DNA of 64,000 nucleotides from Terriglobales bacterium. GTDB lineage: Bacteria > Acidobacteriota > Aminicenantia > Aminicenantales > Saccharicenantaceae. Of this stretch, positions 1,886 through 62,314 are shown in pieces. A program made the translations under genes and the position numbers. The DNA lies in the NCBI GenBank assembly GCA_035543515.1, contig DATKJS010000009.1, positions 21,324-85,323 on the forward strand. Reading direction: 5' to 3'. The notes below the pieces were generated by a model. It was not told the origin of the DNA. It worked only from the letters and a program-made list of their open reading frames with translations, and ran no database searches. The first letter of the stretch is position 1. Every line of letters begins with the position of its first letter.

Positions 1886-4174
1886 CTAGCGTTTTGCCTG
1901 CCCCAAGTTGGCCAGCCCCCAGCCGATCTGCCCGAGCGAGAGCGACTCGTCATTCGGCGAGTAGAGGACCGGCCGCAGCACCCGGAAGCCGGCCCGGCCG
2001 AGCCGCCGGGTCGTCCGATCGAGCAGGACCCGGTTGAGGAAAACCCCTCCGGCCAGGGCGACCGTGTCCGTGCCCCGCTCTTCCCTTGTTTTCAACGCCA
2101 CCCGCAGGATGAGTCCGGCCAGCGAGTTGTGGAAGGCCGATGAGACGTGGCTAGCCGGGAGGCCTTTCCCGAGGTCGCGGACGACGGCCCTGATGAGCGG
2201 GGCGAAGGAGGCCTCGGCCGGCCGGCCCGGCCCGGCCTCCGCAAGGCCGACCGGATACGTTCCCGCCGCGCGACCTTCGGCCGCCGCCTCGAGCCGCATG
2301 GCCGCTTCGGCCTCGTACTCCATCCGCTCCGGCGCCGTGCCGCAGAGGAAAGACACGGCGTCGAAGAGCCGGCCGCAGCTCGAGGCGAGGGGGCTGCGGA
2401 CGCCGGTGCGGACGAGCTCGAGGACGGCCGCCCGCCGGGCCGCGCCGATCCTCCGCAGGGCGGCGGGGACGGGGGCGTCCGGGCCGAAGGCCTCGACGAG
2501 GTAGGCCAGGGCCATCCGCCACGGCTCGCGCGCCGCCAGGTCGCCTCCCGGGAGCGGCACGGGCCTGAAGCGGGCCACGCGCTCGTATCCGCGGTAATCG
2601 GCCAGCAGGAACTCGCCGCCCCAGGCCGTGCCGTCGTCCCCGTATCCGTACCCGTCGAGGGCGACGCCGAGGACCTTCGTCCCCGGCGCGACGCCGTGCT
2701 CGAGGAGCGCCGCAAGGACGTGGGCAAAGTGATGCTGGACCCGGTGATGGGGGAGGCCGATCCGGTCGGCGTAGCGCGTCGTCCGGAAATCGGGATGGAG
2801 GTCGGTGATGACGGCCTCCGGCCGGACGCCGAACAGCCGTTCGAGGTGGGCGAGCGTCTCCTCGAAGTAGCCGAAATTGCGGTAATCATCGAGGTCCCCC
2901 AGGAACTGGCTGGTGACGACGTACCCGTCGCGATAGACCGAGACCGTGTCCTTAAGCTCGCCGCCGAGGGCGACGAGGGTGAGGCGCTGGCGCAGGGCCT
3001 CGGGCACGGCCTGAGGATAGGGGACGTAGCCGCGGGCGCGCCGGACGAAGAGCGGGCCGTCGGCGGCGGCCTTGATCACGGAATCGTCGGCCCTCATGGC
3101 GATCGGCCGGTCGTGGGTGAGGACCGCGTCGGCGAACCGCCCGACCCCCTCTCCCTCCTCCTTCATGATCGGCGCGTCCTTCGGGTTCGAGCTCGTGGCC
3201 ACGATGAGGCCGAGGGGCGCGAGCAGGAGGTGATGGAGGGGGGTGTAAGGCAGCATGACGCCGACCTCGTCGAGGCCCGGCGCGATGAGCGGGAGGTCCT
3301 GCCGCTTCTTGAGCAGCACGATCGGCCGCCGCGAGGAGAGGAGCAGGCGGCGCTCGGCCGGACCGGCCCGGCCGACCTTGGCGGCCTCGCCCATGTCCCG
3401 GGCCATTAGGGCCAGGGGCTTGGTCCGCCGGGCCTTGGCCCGCCGCAGGCGGAGGACGGCCCGCCTGTTCGTCGGGTCGCAGACGAGATGGAACCCGCCC
3501 AGGCCCTTGACGGCCAGCACGCGGCCCTTGCGGACGAGCGCGGCCGCCTCCGCGATGCCGCCCGGAAGGACTTTCCCCGTCCGCGCGTCCTTCAGCGTCA
3601 CCCGCGGACCGCAGACCGGGCAGGCGATGGGCTGGGCGTGGTGCCGGCGGTCGAGCGGGTCCTCGTATTCCCGGCGGCAGTCCGGGCACATGGGGAAGCC
3701 GGCCATCGTCGTCCGCGGCCGGTCATAGGGGAGGCCGGTGACGATGGTGTAGCGCGGGCCGCAGTTCGTGCAATTGGTGAAGGGATAGCGGAAGCGGCGC
3801 GCGCCGGGCGTCCGGACCTCCTCCAGGCACTCGGGGCAGGTGGCGATGTCGGGCGAGATGAAGACGAAGCTCCGGCCCGCCCGGGTCCTGCGGATGGCGA
3901 AGCCGGGCCGGCCCGTCGGCCGGGACGGCCGCGCCTCGAGCCGCTCGACGCGGGCGAGCGGCGGGAGCTCCGACCGGAGGGCGGCTAGGAAGCGCGCATG
4001 GGTCGCCGGCCTGCCGCCCTCGACCTGGATCTCGACGCCGCCGCCGATGTTCTTGACCCAGCCGGCCAAGCCCAGGCGCCGGGCGAGGCGGAAGACGAAC
4101 GGCCGGAAGCCCACGCCCTGGACGACGCCGAAGGCGAGGACCCGCGTCGCCGGAACCCGGTTCCTGCCTTTCAT
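1886..4174 (-). CDS. hypF: Carbamoyltransferase HypF ([NiFe]-hydrogenase maturation type)
   Basis: Acylphosphatase-like N-terminus (VQGVGFRPFV), two zinc-finger pairs (CPECLEE..CTNCGPRY; CPDCRREY..CPVCGP), then YrdC-like and Kae1-like regions. Start moved from 4318 to ATG 4174; the extra 48 codons overlap queH and are Arg/Ala filler. Confidence 0.9.
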   Translation of the reverse strand: MKGRNRVPATRVLAFGVVQGVGFRPFVFRLARRLGLAGWVKNIGGGVEIQVEGGRPATHARFLAALRSELPPLARVERLEARPSRPTGRPGFAIRRTRAGRSFVFISPDIATCPECLEEVRTPGARRFRYPFTNCTNCGPRYTIVTGLPYDRPRTTMAGFPMCPDCRREYEDPLDRRHHAQPIACPVCGPRVTLKDARTGKVLPGGIAEAAALVRKGRVLAVKGLGGFHLVCDPTNRRAVLRLRRAKARRTKPLALMARDMGEAAKVGRAGPAERRLLLSSRRPIVLLKKRQDLPLIAPGLDEVGVMLPYTPLHHLLLAPLGLIVATSSNPKDAPIMKEEGEGVGRFADAVLTHDRPIAMRADDSVIKAAADGPLFVRRARGYVPYPQAVPEALRQRLTLVALGGELKDTVSVYRDGYVVTSQFLGDLDDYRNFGYFEETLAHLERLFGVRPEAVITDLHPDFRTTRYADRIGLPHHRVQHHFAHVLAALLEHGVAPGTKVLGVALDGYGYGDDGTAWGGEFLLADYRGYERVARFRPVPLPGGDLAAREPWRMALAYLVEAFGPDAPVPAALRRIGAARRAAVLELVRTGVRSPLASSCGRLFDAVSFLCGTAPERMEYEAEAAMRLEAAAEGRAAGTYPVGLAEAGPGRPAEASFAPLIRAVVRDLGKGLPASHVSSAFHNSLAGLILRVALKTREERGTDTVALAGGVFLNRVLLDRTTRRLGRAGFRVLRPVLYSPNDESLSLGQIGWGLANLGQAKR

Positions 4175-4187
4175 CGCGATGGCCGTT

Positions 4188-4745
4188 TCATCGGCCCCGG
4201 GCCCCCAGGGCTTCGAGGCTGTCGGCGCAGCCGCAGTAGTCCTGGCGATAGAGGCCGTGGGCGCGGCTGAGGCCGACGCTCTTCTTGAAGCCGTCCTTCT
4301 TCTTGAAGTCGGCCTCAAGGAAGCGGAGGCCGTAGCGTTCCCCGAACTGGCGGCCGATGCGGTTGATGACGGCCGCCTTCTTCCAGGGGCTGAGGCTCAT
4401 GACCGTGGCGAAGGCGTCGAAGCCGCGGGCTGCGGCCTCCTCGGCCGTCCGTTTCAGCCGGACGGCGTAGCAGACGTCGCAGCGCCGCCCCTTCTCCGGC
4501 TCGCCCCGGAACTTCCGCGTCACGGCCAGCCAGCGGTCGGGCTCGTAGGCGTCCTCGACGAGGGGAAGGGCGAGAAGGCCGGCGACCTTCCGCGCCTCCT
4601 CCAGCCGCCTCACGTATTCCGCGGCCGGGTGGATGTTGGCGTTGGAGAAGAATCCGGCGGCGTCGAATTCGTCTCGGAGGAGGCCGAGGACGTAGAGCGC
4701 GTCCGGCGCGCAGCAGACGTGGACGAGGAGCCGCGGTTTGGTCAT
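4188..4745 (-). CDS. queH: Epoxyqueuosine reductase QueH (DUF208)
   Basis: Cysteine motifs typical of QueH: HVCCAPD near the N-terminus, RCDVCY in the middle, QDYCGC near the C-terminus. Size is 185 aa. Confidence 0.85.
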   Translation of the reverse strand: MTKPRLLVHVCCAPDALYVLGLLRDEFDAAGFFSNANIHPAAEYVRRLEEARKVAGLLALPLVEDAYEPDRWLAVTRKFRGEPEKGRRCDVCYAVRLKRTAEEAAARGFDAFATVMSLSPWKKAAVINRIGRQFGERYGLRFLEADFKKKDGFKKSVGLSRAHGLYRQDYCGCADSLEALGARGR

Positions 4746-4802
4746 GCGACTATTGTATCCGGCCGGCCGGGATTAATAAAGGGCGCCCGGGGGGGACCGT
4801 CC

Positions 4803-7173: not shown

Positions 7174-8346
7174 ATGAACGAGAGGCCCCTCGACGGCGTC
7201 CGCATCCTCGACCTGTCCCGGCTCCTGCCGGGCCCCTTCGCGACGCTTCTGCTCTCCGACCTTGGGGCGGAAGTCATCAAGGTCGAGGACGCCGCCTGCG
7301 GCGACCCCATCCGGGCCATGGGCCCCTTCAGGGCCGGGCAGGGCGCCTATTTTCTGGCCCTGAACCCGGGCAAGAAGAGCCTCGCCCTGAACCTCAAGGA
7401 CCCGCGCGGCCGCGAGGCCTTCCTCCGTCTGGCCGGCACGGCCCACGTTATCGTCGAGGGCTTTCGGCCGGGCACAGCCGACCGCCTCGGCGTCGGCTTC
7501 GAGGCCGTCCACGCCGTCAACCCCCGCCTCGTTTACTGCTCGATTTCCGGCTACGGCCTTGACGGGCCCCTGCGGGACCGGGCCGGCCACGACCTCAACT
7601 ACATCGCCCGGGCCGGCATCCTCGGCCTGTCGGGCGCGCCGGGAGGGCCGGCCGCCGTCCCGCCCGTGCAGGTGGCCGACCTCAGCTCCGGCATGTACGC
7701 GGCCGTGGCCGTCCTTGCGGCGCTCCGGGAGAGCGAGCGCACCGGCGAGGGCCGGACGATCGACATCGGGATGATGGACAGCGCCATGTCCTGGCTGATC
7801 ATGACCGTGGCCGAGTTCTCCGCCGGCGAGCGCGGGGGCCGGGGCCAGCTCCACCTGACCGGCAAGTACCCCTGCTACCACGTCTACCGGACCAAGGACG
7901 GTTACGAGTTCGCCCTGGCCGCTCTGGAGCCGAAGTTCTGGGCGGATTTCTGCCGGGCCGCGGGCCGGCCGGACCTCGCCGACCTCCAGTATTCCGAATC
8001 GCCCGAGGCCTTGGCCGAGGTCGCCGCCGTCTTTGCCGGGCGGAGCCGCGACGAGTGGGCGGCCCTGGCCAGGACTGGCGACTTTTGCTGCGAGCCGGTC
8101 CTGACGCTCGAGGAGGCCCTGCTCGATGTCCAGGCCCGCCGGCGCGGGGTGGTGCGGCTGGTGCGGGCGGGGGAGCAGACGGCGGTCGAGCTGGGCAACC
8201 CGCTCCGGCGGCTGGCGGGAGGCGAGCCGGGACCCTGCCCGGAACACGGGGAGCACACCGCGGCCCTCCTTCGCGAGCTGGGGTACTCCGACGCCGAGCT
8301 GGCCGATCTCGAGGCCGCGGGGGTCATCCCGGTCCGCCGCAGGTAG
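7174..8346 (+). CDS. Family III CoA-transferase (CaiB/BaiF/alpha-methylacyl-CoA racemase-like)
   Basis: N-terminus MNERPLDGVRILDLSRLLPGPFATLLLSDLGAEVIKVE is the canonical family III start, and GHDLNY is present. An alternative upstream ATG at 7147 adds 9 aa. Confidence 0.85.
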   Translation: MNERPLDGVRILDLSRLLPGPFATLLLSDLGAEVIKVEDAACGDPIRAMGPFRAGQGAYFLALNPGKKSLALNLKDPRGREAFLRLAGTAHVIVEGFRPGTADRLGVGFEAVHAVNPRLVYCSISGYGLDGPLRDRAGHDLNYIARAGILGLSGAPGGPAAVPPVQVADLSSGMYAAVAVLAALRESERTGEGRTIDIGMMDSAMSWLIMTVAEFSAGERGGRGQLHLTGKYPCYHVYRTKDGYEFALAALEPKFWADFCRAAGRPDLADLQYSESPEALAEVAAVFAGRSRDEWAALARTGDFCCEPVLTLEEALLDVQARRRGVVRLVRAGEQTAVELGNPLRRLAGGEPGPCPEHGEHTAALLRELGYSDAELADLEAAGVIPVRRR

Positions 8347-17239: not shown

Positions 17240-18177
17240 GCGCCGTCCGCCGGGACCTGGCCTTCGTCGTGGCGACCATGGACCGGCCGGGGCCATTGTC
17301 CCGGTTGCTCGAAAGCCTGGCCGCGCAGACAGTCGTGCCGGCCGAGGTCGTCGTCGTCGACGGCGGCGCGGCGCCGGCCGCCGACCTCTGCTGGGGGCCA
17401 CGGCCGTTCGCCGTGCGTCATATCCCGTTCCGGCCGCCCTCGACGGCGCGGCAGCGGAACGCCGGGCTCGAGGCCGTGTCCTCGGGCATCGCCTTCGTCG
17501 GCTTCCTCGACGACGACGTCCTCCTCGAACCGGGGGCGGTCGGGGCGATGATGGCCTTCTTCGACGCCGCGGCCGCGGAGGTCGGCGGCGCGGCCTTCAA
17601 CATGTCGAACCATCCGCCGCTCCGGGCGGCCCGCTGGAAGTCGTCGCGCTTCGCCGAGCGGGCCGGCCTCTATGGCCGCCGGCCGGGGGCCGTCATGAAG
17701 TCGGGGTTCCAGACGATGATCGGGCCGCTCGCGGCCGACCTCCGCACGGACTGGCTGCCGAGCGGCGCGGTCGTCTGGCGCCGCGACGTCCTGCGCCGGA
17801 CGAAGTTCGACGATTGGTTCGCCGACTACGGCTACCTCGAGGACCTGGACCTCAGCTACCGCGCCGGCAAGTCTTCCGTCCTCGTGGCCGTGGCGGGCGC
17901 CCGCTATTCCCACCACCCGGATGCCTCGCCCCGCCCCGACCCGTACCGCTTCGGGCGGAAGGAGGTCGCCAACCGGCTCCGGTTCGTGGCCAAGAACCCG
18001 GAGCTCTCGCCGGCGCTCTGCCGGCTGGCCCTCGTCGTGCGGATGGTCATGAGCCTCTCGGACGGGCTCTTCCTCGGCCAACGCGCGGAACTCCGGCGCG
18101 TCCGGGGGAACATGGCCGGCTTCTTAGGCCCGGGGCCGGGGCCGGAGGCGGCCCGGCGGAAACGGAACGGACGATGA
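17236..18177 (+). CDS. Glycosyltransferase family 2 (GT-A)
   Basis: N-terminal LAFVVATMDRPGPLSRLLESL and the DxD-type VGFLDDDV motif. The ATG overlaps the upstream stop (ATGA). Confidence 0.8.
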   Translation: MSAVRRDLAFVVATMDRPGPLSRLLESLAAQTVVPAEVVVVDGGAAPAADLCWGPRPFAVRHIPFRPPSTARQRNAGLEAVSSGIAFVGFLDDDVLLEPGAVGAMMAFFDAAAAEVGGAAFNMSNHPPLRAARWKSSRFAERAGLYGRRPGAVMKSGFQTMIGPLAADLRTDWLPSGAVVWRRDVLRRTKFDDWFADYGYLEDLDLSYRAGKSSVLVAVAGARYSHHPDASPRPDPYRFGRKEVANRLRFVAKNPELSPALCRLALVVRMVMSLSDGLFLGQRAELRRVRGNMAGFLGPGPGPEAARRKRNGR

Positions 18178-34036: not shown

Positions 34037-34845
34037 ACCCGTCCGCGGCCGTCTCCGTCGACGGACTGGTCAAGCGCTACCCGGTCTTCGGCGGCTTTCG
34101 GGACCTCGCCCGCCATCCGTTCAGGCGACCGACCCGGGCCGCCCTCGACGGGGTCAGCCTCGAGGTCGGGCCGGGCCGCGCCTTCTGCCTGCTCGGACCG
34201 AACGGCGCCGGCAAGACGACCCTGATCAAGGTCCTGACGACCCTTGTCCTGCCCGACGGAGGGCGGGCCTTCGTCGCCGGCCACGACGTCGAGCGGTCGC
34301 CGGCCGCGGTCAAGCGGGCCGTCGGCTACGCCATCAACGACGAGCGGAGCTTCTACTGGCGGCTGACCGGGCGTCAGAACCTTGAGTTCTTCGGCGCCCT
34401 GGCCGGGCTCGGCGGCCGCCGTCGGGACGAAAGGGTCGCCGGCGTGCTCTGCCTGACCGGCCTCGAGTCCGCCGCCGACGTCAGGTTCAACGCCTATTCC
34501 ACGGGCATGCGGCAGATGCTGTCCATCGCTCGGGCCCTGCTCGCCGACGCCGCCATCCTCTTTGTCGACGAGCCGACCCGCTCGCTCGACCCGAAGGCCG
34601 CGGCCGCCGTCCGGGCGTTCCTGAGGCGCGAGCTCGTCGACGCCCGGAAGAAGACCGTCTTCTGGGCCACCCACGACCTGGCCGAGGCGGCCGAGTTCGG
34701 CCACGAGGCGGCCGTTATCGACCGCGGCCGGATTATGGCCCGCGGCCCGGTCGACCGGCTGACCGAGGGCGGGCGCCTCTCCCTAAGGCAAGTCTACGAC
34801 CGGGCCTTGGCGGCCGCGGGGGCGGAGGGGGAGGCCGGCTCATGA
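34033..34845 (+). CDS. ABC transporter ATP-binding protein
   Basis: Walker A GPNGAGKTT, signature YSTGMRQML, Walker B ILFVDEPTRSLD, H-loop ATHDL. ATGA overlap with the upstream gene. Confidence 0.9.
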   Translation: MNPSAAVSVDGLVKRYPVFGGFRDLARHPFRRPTRAALDGVSLEVGPGRAFCLLGPNGAGKTTLIKVLTTLVLPDGGRAFVAGHDVERSPAAVKRAVGYAINDERSFYWRLTGRQNLEFFGALAGLGGRRRDERVAGVLCLTGLESAADVRFNAYSTGMRQMLSIARALLADAAILFVDEPTRSLDPKAAAAVRAFLRRELVDARKKTVFWATHDLAEAAEFGHEAAVIDRGRIMARGPVDRLTEGGRLSLRQVYDRALAAAGAEGEAGS

Positions 34846-35675
34846 ATCCCACGGCCCGGAGCGCGGGCCTCGTCGTGACGCGGCTCAGCGCCTTCCTCCG
34901 CCGCGACCTCCGCGAAGCCCTGAGCTACAAGTTCACCTTCGTCTCTTCCCTTGCCGGCATCTTCTTCTCTACGGCGACGTTCTTCTTCGTGGCCAAGCTC
35001 GTCCCGCCCGGCGCCGCTTCGCTCGCCGCGTACGGGGGCAACTACTTCTCCTTCGCCGTCGTCGGCGTCGCTTTTTCGAGCCTCCTCGGTATCTTCCAGG
35101 CCGGGCTGCCCTCCGTCATCCGGAACGCCCAGGTCTCCGGAACGCTCGAGGCCGTGCTGGCGACGCCTGCGTCCGTCCCGACCGTCCTCGTCGGTTCGTC
35201 CCTCTACTCGTTCGTTTTCCAGACCTTCCGGACGATGCTCCACCTGGCCGTGGCCGTCCTTGTTTTCGGCATGGTCCTCGGCCCCGTGAACTGGGCCGGC
35301 GTCGCCGCCGTCTTCGCCCTGACGGCCCTGGCCTTCCTTTCCGTGGGCATGCTTTCGGCGAGCTTCATCCTCGTCTACAAGCTCGGGAACCCGTTCGGCT
35401 GGCTGCTCTTGGGCATCTCGGGCCTGCTCGGCGGCGTGGTGTTTCCCGTGACCCTCCTCCCGCCGTGGCTCCGCTGGGCGTCGTCGCTCCTGCCGGTGAC
35501 CTATGCCCTCGACGGCATGCGCCGCAGCCTCCTCGCCCCGACCGGGTTCGCCGCGCTCGTCCCCGACATCGTCGCCCTGGCGGCCTTCGACGTCGTCCTG
35601 TTGCCGCTCGGCCTCGTTCTCTTCCGAGTCGCGGTGCGCAAGGCCAAGCGGGACGGCACGCTCTCACACTACTGA
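34842..35675 (+). CDS. ABC-2 type transporter permease
   Basis: Six hydrophobic spans, 277 aa. ATGA overlap with the ATPase gene. Confidence 0.8.
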   Translation: MNPTARSAGLVVTRLSAFLRRDLREALSYKFTFVSSLAGIFFSTATFFFVAKLVPPGAASLAAYGGNYFSFAVVGVAFSSLLGIFQAGLPSVIRNAQVSGTLEAVLATPASVPTVLVGSSLYSFVFQTFRTMLHLAVAVLVFGMVLGPVNWAGVAAVFALTALAFLSVGMLSASFILVYKLGNPFGWLLLGISGLLGGVVFPVTLLPPWLRWASSLLPVTYALDGMRRSLLAPTGFAALVPDIVALAAFDVVLLPLGLVLFRVAVRKAKRDGTLSHY

Positions 35676-35870
35676 CCGGCGCGGCTCTCCCCACGTTCTT
35701 GATCAAGGAAAGAATCCTACCTATCGGCGGAGGGGTCCTGTCCGTGTGCCGAAGCCCTCGGGGATGGCCTCCCCTCCGGAGTGCGGCTTGCGCTAAGCCG
35801 CACATGACGTTCCGGCCGTTCCCCTTCGGCTCTCGTCCGATGCCGGACGGGTGGCCGGTGCCAGTCGCGG

Positions 35871-35899
35871 CCGAACGGAGGGAGCACCCCGAGCTCGAC
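35871..35899 (+). repeat. 29-nt motif S (CCGAACGGAGGGAGCACCCCGAGCTCGAC), copy 1
   Basis: 26/29 identical to 60078-60106 in the same orientation. Confidence 0.6.
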
Positions 35900-35924
35900 T
35901 TCCCCATGACGGGGACGTGCGGCG

Positions 35925-36039
35925 GGTGGCGCCGAGGCCGTGCGAAAGACCCCGTTTGGAAGGGGGCCCGTCGGCCTTGCGACGGGGGAAACGGGACAGG
36001 TTCCCGGGGCCGGGGGATAAGGACGGCCTTGGCGCCACC
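35925..36039 (-). repeat. 115-nt core repeat, copy A (inverted relative to copy B)
   Basis: The reverse complement matches 59762-59876 at 108/115 positions by hand alignment. It is closed by GGTGGCGCC/GGCGCCACC and contains three internal hairpins. Confidence 0.9.
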
Positions 36040-36130
36040 GCACGGGGACGCACACGGACAGGACCCCGCCGCCGATAGATCCGCGTTTGGCCTGACCGGT
36101 CGAATCTGCTAACATGAGGGGCGGAGACAG

Positions 36131-36709
36131 ATGTTGGGCAAGAGAACGCTGACCATCGCGGCGGCCGGGCTCCTGGCCGTCTCCGGCTTCGCGGCGCCGC
36201 CGACGCTCGCGCCGGAGGTCAAGGAGCGGGCCCTCAAGGTCATCGCCCTGCTCGAGGGGCTCGAGAAGGACCGGGCCCGGCACCCGGAGCGTCCCGGCGG
36301 CAGCGGCGCCGTCGCCGAGGCCGACGTTAACGCCTGGATCGCCTACCGCATCGCCACGGAAGGGGAGTCCTACGTCCGGTCGTGCGAGCTCCGCCTCCTC
36401 GACGGCGACCGGGCCGAGGGCAAGCTCGTTATCGACCTCAGCCGGACCCCTGCCTCGACCGTGCTTCCGGCGCAGGCGGAGGTCTTCTTCGCCGCCTCGG
36501 CCGAGACGCGCGACGGCAAGATCCGCATCATCATGGAGCGGCTCTTCCTCGGCACCCAGAGCCTGCCGCCGTCCTTCCTCGACACGGTCATCGGCATCGT
36601 CGCCGGCCTCGAGGGGCAGCCGGCGCAGAGCCTGCGCGACTGGTATCCGCTGCCCTACGGTATCCGGCGGCTGGAATCGCGTGCCGGCCGCCTCATCTGC
36701 CATTATTAA
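36131..36709 (+). CDS. Hypothetical secreted protein
   Basis: Signal peptide (MLGKRTLTIAAAGLLAVSGFA). No recognisable motif. Confidence 0.45.
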   Translation: MLGKRTLTIAAAGLLAVSGFAAPPTLAPEVKERALKVIALLEGLEKDRARHPERPGGSGAVAEADVNAWIAYRIATEGESYVRSCELRLLDGDRAEGKLVIDLSRTPASTVLPAQAEVFFAASAETRDGKIRIIMERLFLGTQSLPPSFLDTVIGIVAGLEGQPAQSLRDWYPLPYGIRRLESRAGRLICHY

Positions 36710-46564: not shown

Positions 46565-46679
46565 CGGCCACAGGGCCCGGCCGAGCCGGGCCGAGCGCCC
46601 GGCGGCCGCGCCCGCCGTGTCACGTTTTGTGCCGCGGCGCGCCCCGCATCCCTCTGACCTTGAAGAAGATGCGCCGGGG

Positions 46680-46696
46680 CGGCACAAACTGTGCCG
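46680..46696. promoter_or_regulatory. Perfect palindrome CGGCACA-aac-TGTGCCG, candidate enhancer-binding-protein site (UAS)
   Basis: About 100-115 bp upstream of the sigma-54 -24 element. The half-site TGTGCCGCG recurs at 46628-46636 (62 bp upstream). Confidence 0.5.
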
Positions 46697-46792
46697 CGCC
46701 GGGCCCGATTTGCCGTTCTTATCCGTCTCGCGGCCTGTCATTAATATATTTATAATCAACACCATATAACCAATGGGGGCTGGGCCTCGCCC

Positions 46793-46808
46793 TGGCACGC
46801 GCCTTGCA
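46793..46808 (+). promoter_or_regulatory. Sigma-54 (RpoN) promoter, TGGCACG-N4-TTGCA
   Basis: CTGGCACGcgccTTGCA matches every conserved position of the -24/-12 consensus YTGGCACG-N4-TTGCW. The -12 element ends 26 nt before ATG 46835, with an AAGGAG RBS in between. Confidence 0.75.
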
Positions 46809-46834
46809 AGAAGGAAGGCCGAAAGGAGCCGCCG

Positions 46835-47053
46835 ATGAAAAAAACATGCCTGTGGGCCCTGGTCGGGCTCATCCTCTTTTCCTCAGTCCTTCTCTTCCCT
46901 CTCTCGGTCCGCGCCCGTGACGTGAACGAGTGCTATCGCAACCACCAAGCGTGCCGCGAAAGGGCGCTGGCCATGGATGGGGCCTGGACCAAGATCGCCA
47001 TTTACCTCACCGTCTGTGATGTGGCGCTCGGCAGATGCATCCTGATCGCCTAG
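46835..47053 (+). CDS. Secreted 72-aa mini-protein with twin Cx6C motifs
   Basis: Good RBS and a signal peptide (MKKTCLWALVGLILFSSVLLFPLSVRA). The 45-aa mature part has C33-x6-C40 and C61-x6-C68. It is visibly less GC-rich than its neighbours. Confidence 0.55.
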   Translation: MKKTCLWALVGLILFSSVLLFPLSVRARDVNECYRNHQACRERALAMDGAWTKIAIYLTVCDVALGRCILIA

Positions 47054-57566: not shown

Positions 57567-57785
57567 TTCGGGAGGGACAGTCCGCCCTTCCAGGAAGTAT
57601 CGCGAGGGTCCTGTCGCGGCTTGAAAGCAGGATCTTCACTCAAGGTATTTCCCAGAGGCGAGGCGCCGGGTCACTCCGCCTCACTTCTGCCGGTCGCTTC
57701 TAAGGATCCGCTCCCTGCCGGCCGGGGGCCTCTGGGCCGCGCCCCCCGATCACGACTGGAGTCCCGCGGGACTATCCCTTCCTTC

Positions 57786-57814
57786 TTGATATTGGAAGCC
57801 TCCGGCCGTAGAAT
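57786..57814 (+). promoter_or_regulatory. Sigma-70-type promoter of the lemA operon (TTGATA-N17-TAGAAT)
   Basis: Read directly, about 55 nt upstream of ATG 57869. Confidence 0.5.
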
Positions 57815-57868
57815 GGAATGCGGCTCCCGCGGCGCGGGGGCTATTCTCGGAGAAAGGGAGGTCCACGC

Positions 57869-59263: not shown

Positions 59264-59713
59264 ATGACGGTCCGCGGCAGGCGCAAGCTGATGAAGGCGG
59301 TCGACATCGAGCGGGTCAAGACGGCCATCCGCGAGGCCGAGCGCGAGACCTCCGGGGAGATCCGGGTCTCCGTGGCCCCGTATTTCTGGGGCCCGGTCCG
59401 GCGCGTCGCCGAGCGGGCCTTCGAGCGGCTGGGCATGCGCAAGACCCGGCAGCGCAACGGCATCCTGTTTTTCTTCGTCCCCTCACGCCGCCGCTTCGTC
59501 GTCCTCGGCGACGAGGGCATCGACGCCGCGGTCGGGCAGGACTTCTGGGACTCCCTGGCCTCCATCCTGTCCGCCCACTTCCGCAAGGGCGAATTCACCG
59601 AGGGGCTGGTCCGGGCCATCGGCGAGGCGGGGGCCAAGCTGGCCGCCCATTTCCCTTGCGACCCCGCGACCGACGTCAACGAGCTCCCCGACGACGTCGA
59701 CTTCGGAAAATAG
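59264..59713 (+). CDS. TPM domain protein (cytoplasmic type)
   Basis: ETSGEIRVSVAP.., RNGILFFFVPSRRRFVVLGDEGI. The LemA-TPM-TPM gene order is typical. RBS GAGGGAGGG. Confidence 0.75.
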   Translation: MTVRGRRKLMKAVDIERVKTAIREAERETSGEIRVSVAPYFWGPVRRVAERAFERLGMRKTRQRNGILFFFVPSRRRFVVLGDEGIDAAVGQDFWDSLASILSAHFRKGEFTEGLVRAIGEAGAKLAAHFPCDPATDVNELPDDVDFGK

Positions 59714-59761
59714 GGTTCGCTCCCTGCCGGACGGGTCCCGTCCGCGCCGGTCCACGGTCAT

Positions 59762-59876
59762 GGTGGCGCCAAGGCCGTCCTTATCCCCCGGCCCCGGGAA
59801 CCTGTCCCGGTTCCCCCGTCGCAAGGTTGACGGGCCCCCCTCCAAACGGGGGCTTTCGGACGGCCCCGGCGCCACC
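59762..59876 (+). repeat. 115-nt core repeat, copy B
   Basis: 108/115 identical to the reverse complement of 35925-36039. Predicted fold: P1 GGUGGCGCC/GGCGCCACC, P2 GGCCGUCC/GGACGGCC, and hairpins GGGAACC-N6-GGUUCCC, CCCGUCG-N6-UGACGGG (with a G-U pair) and CCCCC-N8-GGGGG. Confidence 0.9.
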
Positions 59877-60077
59877 TGCGCCTGCCTCCGCCCGTCCTCA
59901 AGGGAGTCGGCGGGACTGGCACCGGCCGCTTGCCCGCTTCAGCTAAATGAAACGGAGAGCGTAGGGGCGGTTCCCGAAGGGAGGCATGGGCAGGCCGAGC
60001 GGGCACGGATGGGCATCGAAGGTCCCAGAGCGAGGCCTGTCCTTGAGCGGGTTGGACTCGCCGGGGCCAACCAGCGT

Positions 60078-60106
60078 CCGAACGCAGGGAACACCCCGAG
60101 CTCGAT
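60078..60106 (+). repeat. 29-nt motif S, copy 2 (CCGAACGCAGGGAACACCCCGAGCTCGAT)
   Basis: 26/29 identical to 35871-35899 in the same orientation, 85 nt upstream of ATG 60191. Confidence 0.6.

Positions 60107-60190: not shown

Positions 60191-62314
<2,124 letters not shown>

Follow-up and report, generated by a model that had tools for sequence, protein, structure and literature searches.

The 64,000-nt stretch of DNA analyzed here (the window; contig DATKJS010000009.1 of assembly GCA_035543515.1, from a bacterium of the Aminicenantia) carries two inverted copies, A and B, of a folded unit of about 115–120 nt, in which a closing helix encloses a junction bearing three hairpins, two of them near-invariant and the third variable in length. 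An earlier reading of the letters alone, without database searches (the sequence-only reading), had taken the two copies for a dedicated pair flanking 23.7 kb of housekeeping genes; they are instead two members of a dispersed family of which more than 100 copies were sampled. We consider it probable, at roughly 0.6, that this is a new mosaic interspersed repeat family of the same kind as MITEs (miniature transposable elements with inverted repeats), REPINs (paired repetitive extragenic palindromic, REP, sequences) and bacterial interspersed mosaic elements (BIMEs), non-autonomous, mobilized in trans, and recognized and maintained as a folded single strand. This placement follows from the multicopy, intergenic and orientation-free distribution of the unit beside housekeeping genes, its mosaic architecture with terminal repeats, its polymorphism at orthologous sites and the contig breaks that it causes. 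The family has not been described before; it belongs to a general kind that is known, and its conserved fold is unusually well defined.

Two core units in the window

The pair is the single outstanding inverted repeat of the window, with arms of 118 nt that are 93% complementary and include a 48-nt perfect stretch; all other inverted pairs are at most 52 nt long at about 70–85%, the next best being 52 nt at 71%. A blastn alignment of 59762-59876 in copy B to 36039-35925 in copy A covered 115 nt with 108/115 identities (93.9%, E = 1.8e-47), reproducing exactly the alignment made by hand in the sequence-only reading, whose failure under software had been named there as a possible refutation. A covariation model built from the family (see below) and run with all filters off found no further core copies in the window, the next matches (27 and 18.5 bits) being the reverse strands of A and B themselves. 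The parts of the core are as follows.

35922..36039, minus strand: core unit of copy A (inverted-repeat arm; covariation-model match 35924-36042, minus strand, 118.6 bits)
59762..59879, plus strand, the sense chosen by the sequence-only reading: core unit of copy B (inverted-repeat arm; blastn 108/115; covariation-model match 59759-59877, 132 bits, E = 4.6e-25; fold z = -5.2)
59762..59780, plus strand: closing helix 5' arm of copy B, GGTGGCGCCAAGGCCGTCC, pairing with 59858-59876, with two central A/C positions mismatched in copy B
59858..59876, plus strand: closing helix 3' arm of copy B, GGACGGCCCCGGCGCCACC (fold and covariation)
59796..59815, plus strand: P3 hairpin, GGGAACC-TGTCCC-GGTTCCC (preferred pairing), identical in 107 of 120 occurrences, although the search word included it
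59816..59833, plus strand: P4 variable hairpin, CCGTCG-CAAGGT-TGACGG in copy B, 18 to about 40 nt, differing in sequence and length by subfamily
59834..59853, plus strand: P5 hairpin, GCCCCC-CTCCAAAC-GGGGGC, with 4–5 invariant C-G pairs and no covariation

Several details that had been read from the two copies were found as described: the P2 stem is perfect in copy B and has one C/C mismatch in copy A, the C/G hairpin is longer in B than in A, and the G-U pair is present in the copy B hairpin CCCGUCG/UGACGGG. The core is also, as had been claimed, conserved better than its surroundings.

A dispersed intergenic family

An exact scan with a 21-mer of the core located nine sites in two metagenome-assembled genomes (MAGs) of Candidatus Aminicenantes (five in JBBISK01 and four in CAWDTC01), and a central 22-mer occurred exactly in 101 stretches of Joint Genome Institute (JGI) metagenomes from peat, soil and sediment. 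In 100 loci fetched for comparison with the window (the fetched loci carry labels of the form Lnnn), the covariation model matched 106 times at E <= 0.001, and in about 15 cases a contig end cuts the match short. Such cutting is typical of repeats in short-read assemblies, and in metagenome contigs that carry the gene for the 192-aa protein beside copy A, a contig end likewise tends to fall close to the element. Within the sample, the family occurs only in Candidatus Aminicenantes-type bacteria of peat, soil and sediment; the protein adjoining copy A is identical to one from a MAG labeled Terriglobales at NCBI, so that the host is of acidobacterial or Aminicenantes type.

The cores are intergenic, 106 of the 116 non-redundant ones lying outside genes called by codon-position G+C and the remaining 10, nominally inside, lying in open reading frames (ORFs) that run through the G+C-rich repeat. 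Their orientation follows no rule: the 5' neighbor was on the opposite strand to the core in 54 cases and on the same strand in 42, while the 3' neighbor was on the same strand in 45 and on the opposite one in 41. Recurrent neighbors are housekeeping genes (histidine kinase, sigma factor, Na+/H+ antiporter, AMP-binding enzyme and peptidases). Some copies are wedged between genes of the same direction, with 6–9 nt separating them from the preceding stop codon and about 32 nt from the following start (L052, L082), and many are truncated or rearranged.

Long ORFs with good codon-position G+C pass straight through the repeat at L043 (1192-1827), L049 (628-1515) and L040 (219-1370), and cluster together; they are probably not genuine genes and are likely to give rise to false 'hypothetical proteins' in the annotation of these MAGs.

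Fold and covariation of the core

Both strands of both window cores folded far better than shuffled sequences (z = -4.3 to -5.3), and the closing stem with three hairpins that the sequence-only reading had predicted is supported, the stem by covariation in alignment A2, which comprises 73 distinct intact cores taken from the word-scan matches and is the basis of the covariation model. The closing helix is a continuous 19 bp in most copies; 17 of the 19 pairs have changes on both sides, and 89% of its cells are standard pairs in A2, about 11% being unpaired. Covariation beyond chance in a larger alignment, which had been proposed as a check of the fold, is present for this helix. Over the whole structure, none of 500 column shuffles reached the observed values; double changes occurred in 20 of 36 pairs (123 cells, against 31 +/- 9 in shuffles), and 91% of cells were paired, compared with 33–51% after the 3' partners had been slid by one to three columns. 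In some copies the stems are nearly unrecognizable in sequence and yet paired, as in L035 (GCGGCATACAAGCCCTCC/GGAGGGCTTGTATGCCGC) and L030 (GGGACATTGGAGCCGTCC/GGGCGGCTCCAGTGTCCC).

The interior behaves differently from the stems: pairwise diversity per site was 0.25 in the helix arms and 0.08–0.11 at the junction and P5 positions outside the search word, that is, the interior is 2.5–3 times more conserved. For P3, the pairing CCGGGA/UCCCGG given earlier is less likely than GGGAACC/GGUUCCC, judging from the copies with insertions, since an extra G in L072 and L088 and a longer loop in L125 and L124 extend or spare the latter and would bulge the former. The middle hairpin, P4, is missing in L030 and L080, and its compensatory counts are weak (2 of 5 aligned basal pairs).

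The mismatches of the closing helix are strand-asymmetric. Among 72 distinct stems read in the B-plus/A-minus sense there were 111 A.C mismatches, 42 G.U pairs and 41 other mismatches; A.C exceeded G.U at 13 helix positions and the reverse held at 3 (sign test p = 0.02), and the bias survived the clustering of stems against shared ancestry (50 A.C vs 24 G.U in 24 clusters, p = 0.003). On the A-plus/B-minus strand the A.C positions read G.U (G.T if DNA). Because transitions in duplex DNA predict A.C and G.U in a 1:1 ratio, the observed bias means that one strand matters in single-stranded form. That strand is probably the G-rich one, A plus/B minus, opposite to the one preferred by the sequence-only reading, whose choice had rested on a single G-U pair in P4 of copy B. 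A frequent U.G at the second pair of P5 favors the strand preferred earlier, although 16 copies leave this pair open and it may not exist at all. The mismatch bias is equally compatible with RNA or with single-stranded DNA as the folded form.

Mosaic architecture and the second repeat family

Roughly half of the cores sit in mosaics of 209–472 nt bounded by terminal inverted repeats of about 30 nt. The terminal-repeat module, whose consensus GGTCCYGTCCGYGTGCGTC follows a short palindrome (e.g., GGACGGGTCCCGTCC), lies about 62 nt before the core center in about half of the cores, and in many copies its inverted partner is found 150–400 nt beyond the core; in these composites the terminal repeats extend the closing helix. 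The flanks of A and B had been described as diverged around a maintained core. The core does stand out and the flanks do differ, but not by simple divergence, as they are mosaics of recurrent modules: the terminal inverted repeats, a second hairpin unit, modules W and N, and one end of a second repeat family, X. Module maps of the loci show the terminal repeat, the core, modules P, M, W and N, and family X in many arrangements of varying order and orientation. Between A and B, W keeps the orientation of the core, whereas N is direct although the cores are inverted, which means that the flanks are mosaics and not diverged homologues.

The 14-mer that had been reported as common to both copies, here module W, was found in each, and the GGGTCC(T/C)GTCCG motifs reported with it were located at 59733-59744 (plus strand) and 36055-36066 (minus strand), with one more at 35733-35744 (plus strand). 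The end formerly assigned to copy B (60030) is too short, as the shared 28-nt module N lies further out, and a further terminal inverted repeat, unmentioned before, closes copy A; it is perfect over 12 nt within an imperfect repeat of about 29 nt. The whole-element fold of composite A gave z = -8.9 on the plus and -7.8 on the minus strand. The modules around the two cores are listed below.

35721..36078, minus strand: whole composite A, 358 nt, filling most of its 455-nt intergenic gap
35721..35749, plus strand: outer terminal inverted repeat of composite A, far end, CTATCGGCGGAGGGGTCCTGTCCGTGTGC, with an exact GGGTCCTGTCCG at 35733-35744, pairing with 36050-36078 in the whole-element fold
35752..35815, minus strand: second hairpin unit of composite A, containing GTGCGGCTT-GCGCT-AAGCCGCAC at 35781-35803, with a module M match at 35798
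35853..35866, minus strand: module W of copy A (exact 14-mer)
35871..35898, plus strand: module N of copy A (blastn match to module N of copy B)
36050..36078, minus strand: outer terminal inverted repeat of composite A, core-proximal, with an exact GGGTCCTGTCCG on the minus strand at 36055-36066
59714..60105, plus strand: whole composite B, from the repeat-depth profile of the 477-nt gap; its right boundary is uncertain, the right terminal repeat being degenerate at about 59994-60012
59718..59730, plus strand: family X terminus, CGCTCCCTGCCGG, directly next to the left module of copy B; on the reverse strand, 59718-59728 matches GGCAGGGAGCG exactly
59729..59753, plus strand: left terminal-repeat module of copy B, GGACGGGTCCCGTCCGCGCCGGTCC, with the 15-nt palindrome GGACGGGTCCCGTCC (motif matches)
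59914..59927, plus strand: module W of copy B, GACTGGCACCGGCC (exact 14-mer)
60078..60105, plus strand: module N of copy B, 28 nt, 92.9% identical to 35871-35898 in direct orientation, beyond the end formerly assigned

These modules recur in the wider sample. Module W has 23 occurrences in the window and the fetched loci when one mismatch is allowed, the module N stretch of copy B is repeated in more than 10 other loci, and the second hairpin unit is also present in five (L014, L036, L066, L069 and L118), closed in L066 by an 18-bp stem of its own. Family X has ends CCGGCAGGGAGCG and, when complete, is about 190 nt long with terminal inverted repeats of about 45 nt (e.g., L016). The junction of its terminus with the left module, in which the GGTCCYGTCC repeat comes after CCCTGCCGG, either directly or with ACG between them, recurs in L054, L086, L090, L096 and L032. 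In the subfamily of L016, L085, L050 and L077, X replaces the P5 loop, the P5 3' strand and the following joiner, with junctions CCCCCTCC to GGCAGGGAGCG and CCCTGCCGG to ACGGCC, and in L034 and L096 its right half stands in place of P4, the rest of the core being intact.

The right half of X also occurs alone in the window, at 57640-57722, ending in CGCTCCCTGCCGG and shared with 12 other loci; it lies in a 251-nt gap (57567-57817) between the genes for phosphofructokinase and LemA.

Gain, loss and retention at orthologous sites

Both copies occupy unusually long gaps between plus-strand genes. The gap of copy A, 455 nt, extends from an ABC-2 permease gene (34842-35675) to the gene of the 192-aa protein, of unknown function (36131-36709), and that of copy B, 477 nt, from the second of two TPM-domain genes (ending at 59713) to a prolyl oligopeptidase gene (60191-62314); the genes between the copies serve ordinary metabolism and translation (L31, RF-1, PrmC, urocanase, phosphofructokinase, GlgC, LemA/TPM). 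At the copy A site, the gap is only 70 nt and empty in L122 and L123 (flanking protein 69% identical), and in L120 and L121 (72% identical) it is 174 nt, all that is left there being one terminal-repeat module plus about 40 nt. In L119 (positions 1-167; 88% identical; contig 12 of MAG JBBISK01), the contig starts inside an element whose polarity is opposite, with the second hairpin unit, not the core, facing the 192-aa gene. The empty-site comparison leaves the boundaries of copy A ambiguous.

After the TPM gene, the window, L090 and L125 have a core, L124 has a degenerate one and L126-L129 have none, and no more distant orthologous copies were found after TPM genes at 46–49% identity. The copy of L125, a relative of lower G+C (flanking protein 67% identical), is a divergent core (3465-3591, 74.6 bits) that lies 29 nt after the TPM gene, has A+T-rich flanks and forms a perfect 22-bp closing helix with several double changes relative to copy B, including U-A to A-U and C-G to U-A. 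The copy of L124 at the same site (7297-7510) has about 150 nt inserted in the P5 loop. The gene that follows the LemA-TPM-TPM cluster differs by lineage (window from 60191 onward, L124, L125 and L126), being a prolyl oligopeptidase, a molybdopterin oxidoreductase, an M20 peptidase or a gene of unknown function, and synteny therefore breaks exactly at copy B, whose boundaries no empty site in these relatives defines. From these comparisons, the family is gained, lost and rearranged at given sites, yet can persist across species.

It had also been suggested that the two copies could mediate inversion of the segment between them. The arms are long enough for occasional homologous recombination, so that inversion is possible in principle, and the polarity of the L119 element at the copy A site, in a related species, could be read in its favor. 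The gene order found here gives the idea no support: on either side of copy A, the ABC transporter genes, the 192-aa gene, L31, RF-1, PrmC and the genes on to urocanase agree in order and strand with relatives that do not have the full element, and the assembled segment is thus in its ancestral orientation. All six independent same-species metagenome contigs across the copy A junction have the orientation of the window, no recombinase gene was found nearby among the window genes tested, and the family of the two copies has more than 100 members and no pairing rule. We therefore regard a flip of the 23.7-kb segment by recombination between the inverted cores as very improbable. An inverton was considered as well and rejected, there being no promoter-like site inside the window copies, a single orientation in all same-species contigs, the opposite polarity only in another species (L119) and no recombinase nearby.

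Searches against known RNAs and mobile elements

The family is absent from the libraries of known RNAs and mobile elements that were searched. None of 4227 Rfam families matched anywhere in the window at the gathering score, and at E <= 10 there was no match around copy B and four at chance level (10.5–15.1 bits) around copy A. ARAGORN found no tRNA or tmRNA gene in the window, which also has no tandem repeats. Promoter and terminator scans gave nothing inside the window copies or the canonical composite of L066, whose sole terminator-like site belongs to the upstream gene, and no such signal stood at a fixed distance on either strand. A sigma-54 promoter was considered for GACTGGCACCGGCC and rejected, as the spacing from TGGCAC to TTGC is 7 nt, not 5, in copy B, and copy A has no TTGC. 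The phage and plasmid collections gave no blastn match, and words of the core and terminal repeat were absent from viral contigs, in which two short module words occurred by chance, with no extended similarity. Clustering of 585 predicted neighbor proteins all against all, together with Pfam scans, produced only housekeeping families and spurious ORFs as candidates for an associated protein. No gene for a REP-associated tyrosine (Y1) transposase (RAYT) was seen in the fetched loci, the genomes not having been searched beyond them, and no autonomous partner with the same ends was found among the 585 neighbor proteins or in the Pfam scans of the recurrent ones, a comparison that was likewise not genome-wide. 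A full-text literature search returned nothing on repeats or RNA motifs of Aminicenantes. As to whether the core is part of a known mobile-element end, an outcome that the sequence-only reading had said would refute its account, the core does lie inside a repeat bounded by terminal inverted repeats, but this repeat is not a known element.

Likeness to known repeat systems

The family resembles the bacterial MITEs that fold as RNA hairpins, namely the Correia elements of Neisseria, the enterobacterial repetitive intergenic consensus sequences or intergenic repeat units (ERIC/IRU) and bcr1 of Bacillus cereus, in being small, non-coding, multicopy and intergenic, in having terminal inverted repeats that make the whole element a long hairpin, in lying in either orientation beside housekeeping genes and in being present or absent at orthologous sites. 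Of the properties by which MITEs are recognized, a size below about 600 bp, lack of coding capacity, dispersion in many copies and presence/absence polymorphism at orthologous sites were all observed, and a target-site duplication of fixed length was not. Unlike those MITEs, to which it has no sequence similarity, the family has no definable target-site duplication and no known parent insertion sequence; its most conserved part is an internal multi-branch junction and not the ends, and half of the copies are without terminal repeats.

With REPs and REPINs, which RAYT transposases (Y1, HUH) mobilize, and with the BIMEs of E. coli, the family shares short palindromic end modules, here containing the 15-nt palindrome and occurring singly (L120) or as inverted doublets flanking the core, a hairpin form under selection, the implication of a single-stranded form and the lack of a target duplication; the BIME-like mosaic of recurrent modules in variable order and orientation is also present. 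However, REPs are simple palindromes of 20–40 nt with a conserved tetranucleotide, whereas the unit here is a 115-nt four-way junction, the cargo between the doublets is far larger than in REPINs, and the copy density appears lower, with two copies in 64 kb of the window and none in about 90 kb of related loci not selected for the core. The pneumococcal BOX element (boxA-boxB-boxC) likewise has optional or variable internal modules between conserved ends and predicted stable transcript structures, but it is unrelated in sequence and host phylum and has no conserved multi-branch core with a covarying closing helix. In the omega RNAs of IS200/IS605 TnpB/IscB systems and the bridge RNA of IS110, a conserved multi-hairpin scaffold accompanies mobile DNA beside a variable segment, as here; in contrast, the tested neighbors include no adjacent tnpB, iscB or IS110 recombinase gene, there is no Rfam match, and the variable part of the present unit is base-paired, not a free guide.

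Nature of the element

The favored reading, that of a mobile mosaic repeat, would work as follows. The element is, or recently was, a non-autonomous mobile element spreading to intergenic sites, whose folded single-stranded form, RNA or DNA, may be recognized by an enzyme, of whatever nature, encoded elsewhere in the genome; after insertion it would be co-transcribed with its neighbors as a very stable hairpin structure, with possible effects on the neighboring genes. Several observations weigh against this reading. About half of the cores have no terminal repeats, and it is such bare copies that have the most divergent, still paired stems, while classical MITEs and REPINs conserve their ends and the present family its interior. 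No transposase or recombinase was found among the recurrent neighbors or the window genes tested, all of them housekeeping genes, and no target-site duplication can be defined, the seven elements with both terminal repeats showing no consistent direct repeat. One subfamily propagates without the 3' strand of P5. In alignment A2 there is no covariation support for P3 or P5, because both hardly vary, P3 in part because it stood in the search word and was fixed by it, and the compensated stems could also be explained by correction from arm to arm at the level of DNA. Lastly, the copies at the same two loci, beside flanking proteins only 67–72% identical, could reflect long vertical retention under selection and not mobility.

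The conserved interior, the bare units and the strand-specific mismatches keep alive the tentative alternative that the core functions as a structured RNA, whether as a multicopy small RNA gene or as an element within neighboring transcripts, such as a decay barrier or a protein-binding scaffold, to which we assign a distinctly minor share of belief. Selection would then keep the four-way junction, and the terminal repeats and modules would be secondary, hitch-hiking or left from past mobility. Compensatory variation in the closing helix and P4 speaks for such an RNA, as do the bare cores of L030, L035 and L125, which keep perfect or near-perfect but different stems, the retention of the core after the TPM gene in L125 with pair exchanges relative to copy B, the confinement of foreign sequence to P4 and P5 and never to the junctions, and the copies wedged between same-direction genes in L052 and L082. 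An RNA gene or transcript element would, on the other hand, hardly be expected without a promoter- or terminator-like signal at a fixed distance, in random orientation to its neighbors and with no associated gene class, with about a tenth of the closing-helix cells unpaired and A.C mismatches in both senses, with many copies truncated or rearranged, and with no counterpart in Rfam even at the permissive threshold used for copy B. A related and rather unlikely proposal is that the near-invariant junction of about 80 nt represents a new class of functional folded RNA or single-stranded DNA, recognized by some enzyme much as RAYTs recognize REP hairpins or TnpB and IS110 recombinases their scaffold RNAs, for which the 19-bp helix, free to vary but always paired, is required structurally; retention at the same locus across species would then reflect a function at the level of the host and not mere persistence. 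If, finally, the repeats were sites in double-stranded DNA for a nucleoid-associated protein, gyrase or a site-specific recombinase, the hairpins would be a by-product of palindromic binding sites. The heptamer CCTGTCC is shared by the left terminal repeat and the P3 loop, with its complement in the right terminal repeat, and the random orientation and intergenic location would suit such sites; the REP/BIME elements of E. coli reportedly bind gyrase and IHF. Duplex sites, however, predict equal numbers of A.C and G.U, and the observed ratio of 2–2.6 to 1 survives clustering; the helix varies freely in sequence while its pairing is kept, unlike a sequence-specific duplex site, and the shared heptamer could be due to chance in DNA of 70% G+C. 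This last explanation is accordingly an improbable one.

Aminicenantes are abundant uncultured bacteria of sediments and peat, and a model of the family accounts for contig breaks and for long 'empty' intergenic regions in their assemblies. Such a model would also prevent the mis-calling of repeat regions as genes, as several spurious ORFs cross the element. Among bacterial interspersed repeats the family is unusual for its conserved internal multi-branch junction, a closing helix that drifts with compensation and its strand-specific mismatches, and it offers a tractable case in which to ask in what form, RNA, single-stranded DNA or purely selfish DNA, a repeat is maintained. A cognate enzyme, should there be one, could be identified by profiling co-occurrence across Aminicenantia genomes, and the interest would be higher if the junction were an RNA with a function or the structure that a new enzyme recognizes.

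Other observations in the window

Three further gaps between called genes (4319-4802, 17240-17813 and 46565-47034; 470–574 nt) have no Rfam match and no similarity to the fetched loci, and may hold missed genes. Ahead of the gene of the 192-aa protein there is a promoter-like motif, TTGGCC at 36087-36092 and TAACAT at 36110-36115 with a 17-nt spacer; the repeat of copy A lies directly upstream of it, and the motif is kept in L119-L123 with or without the repeat.

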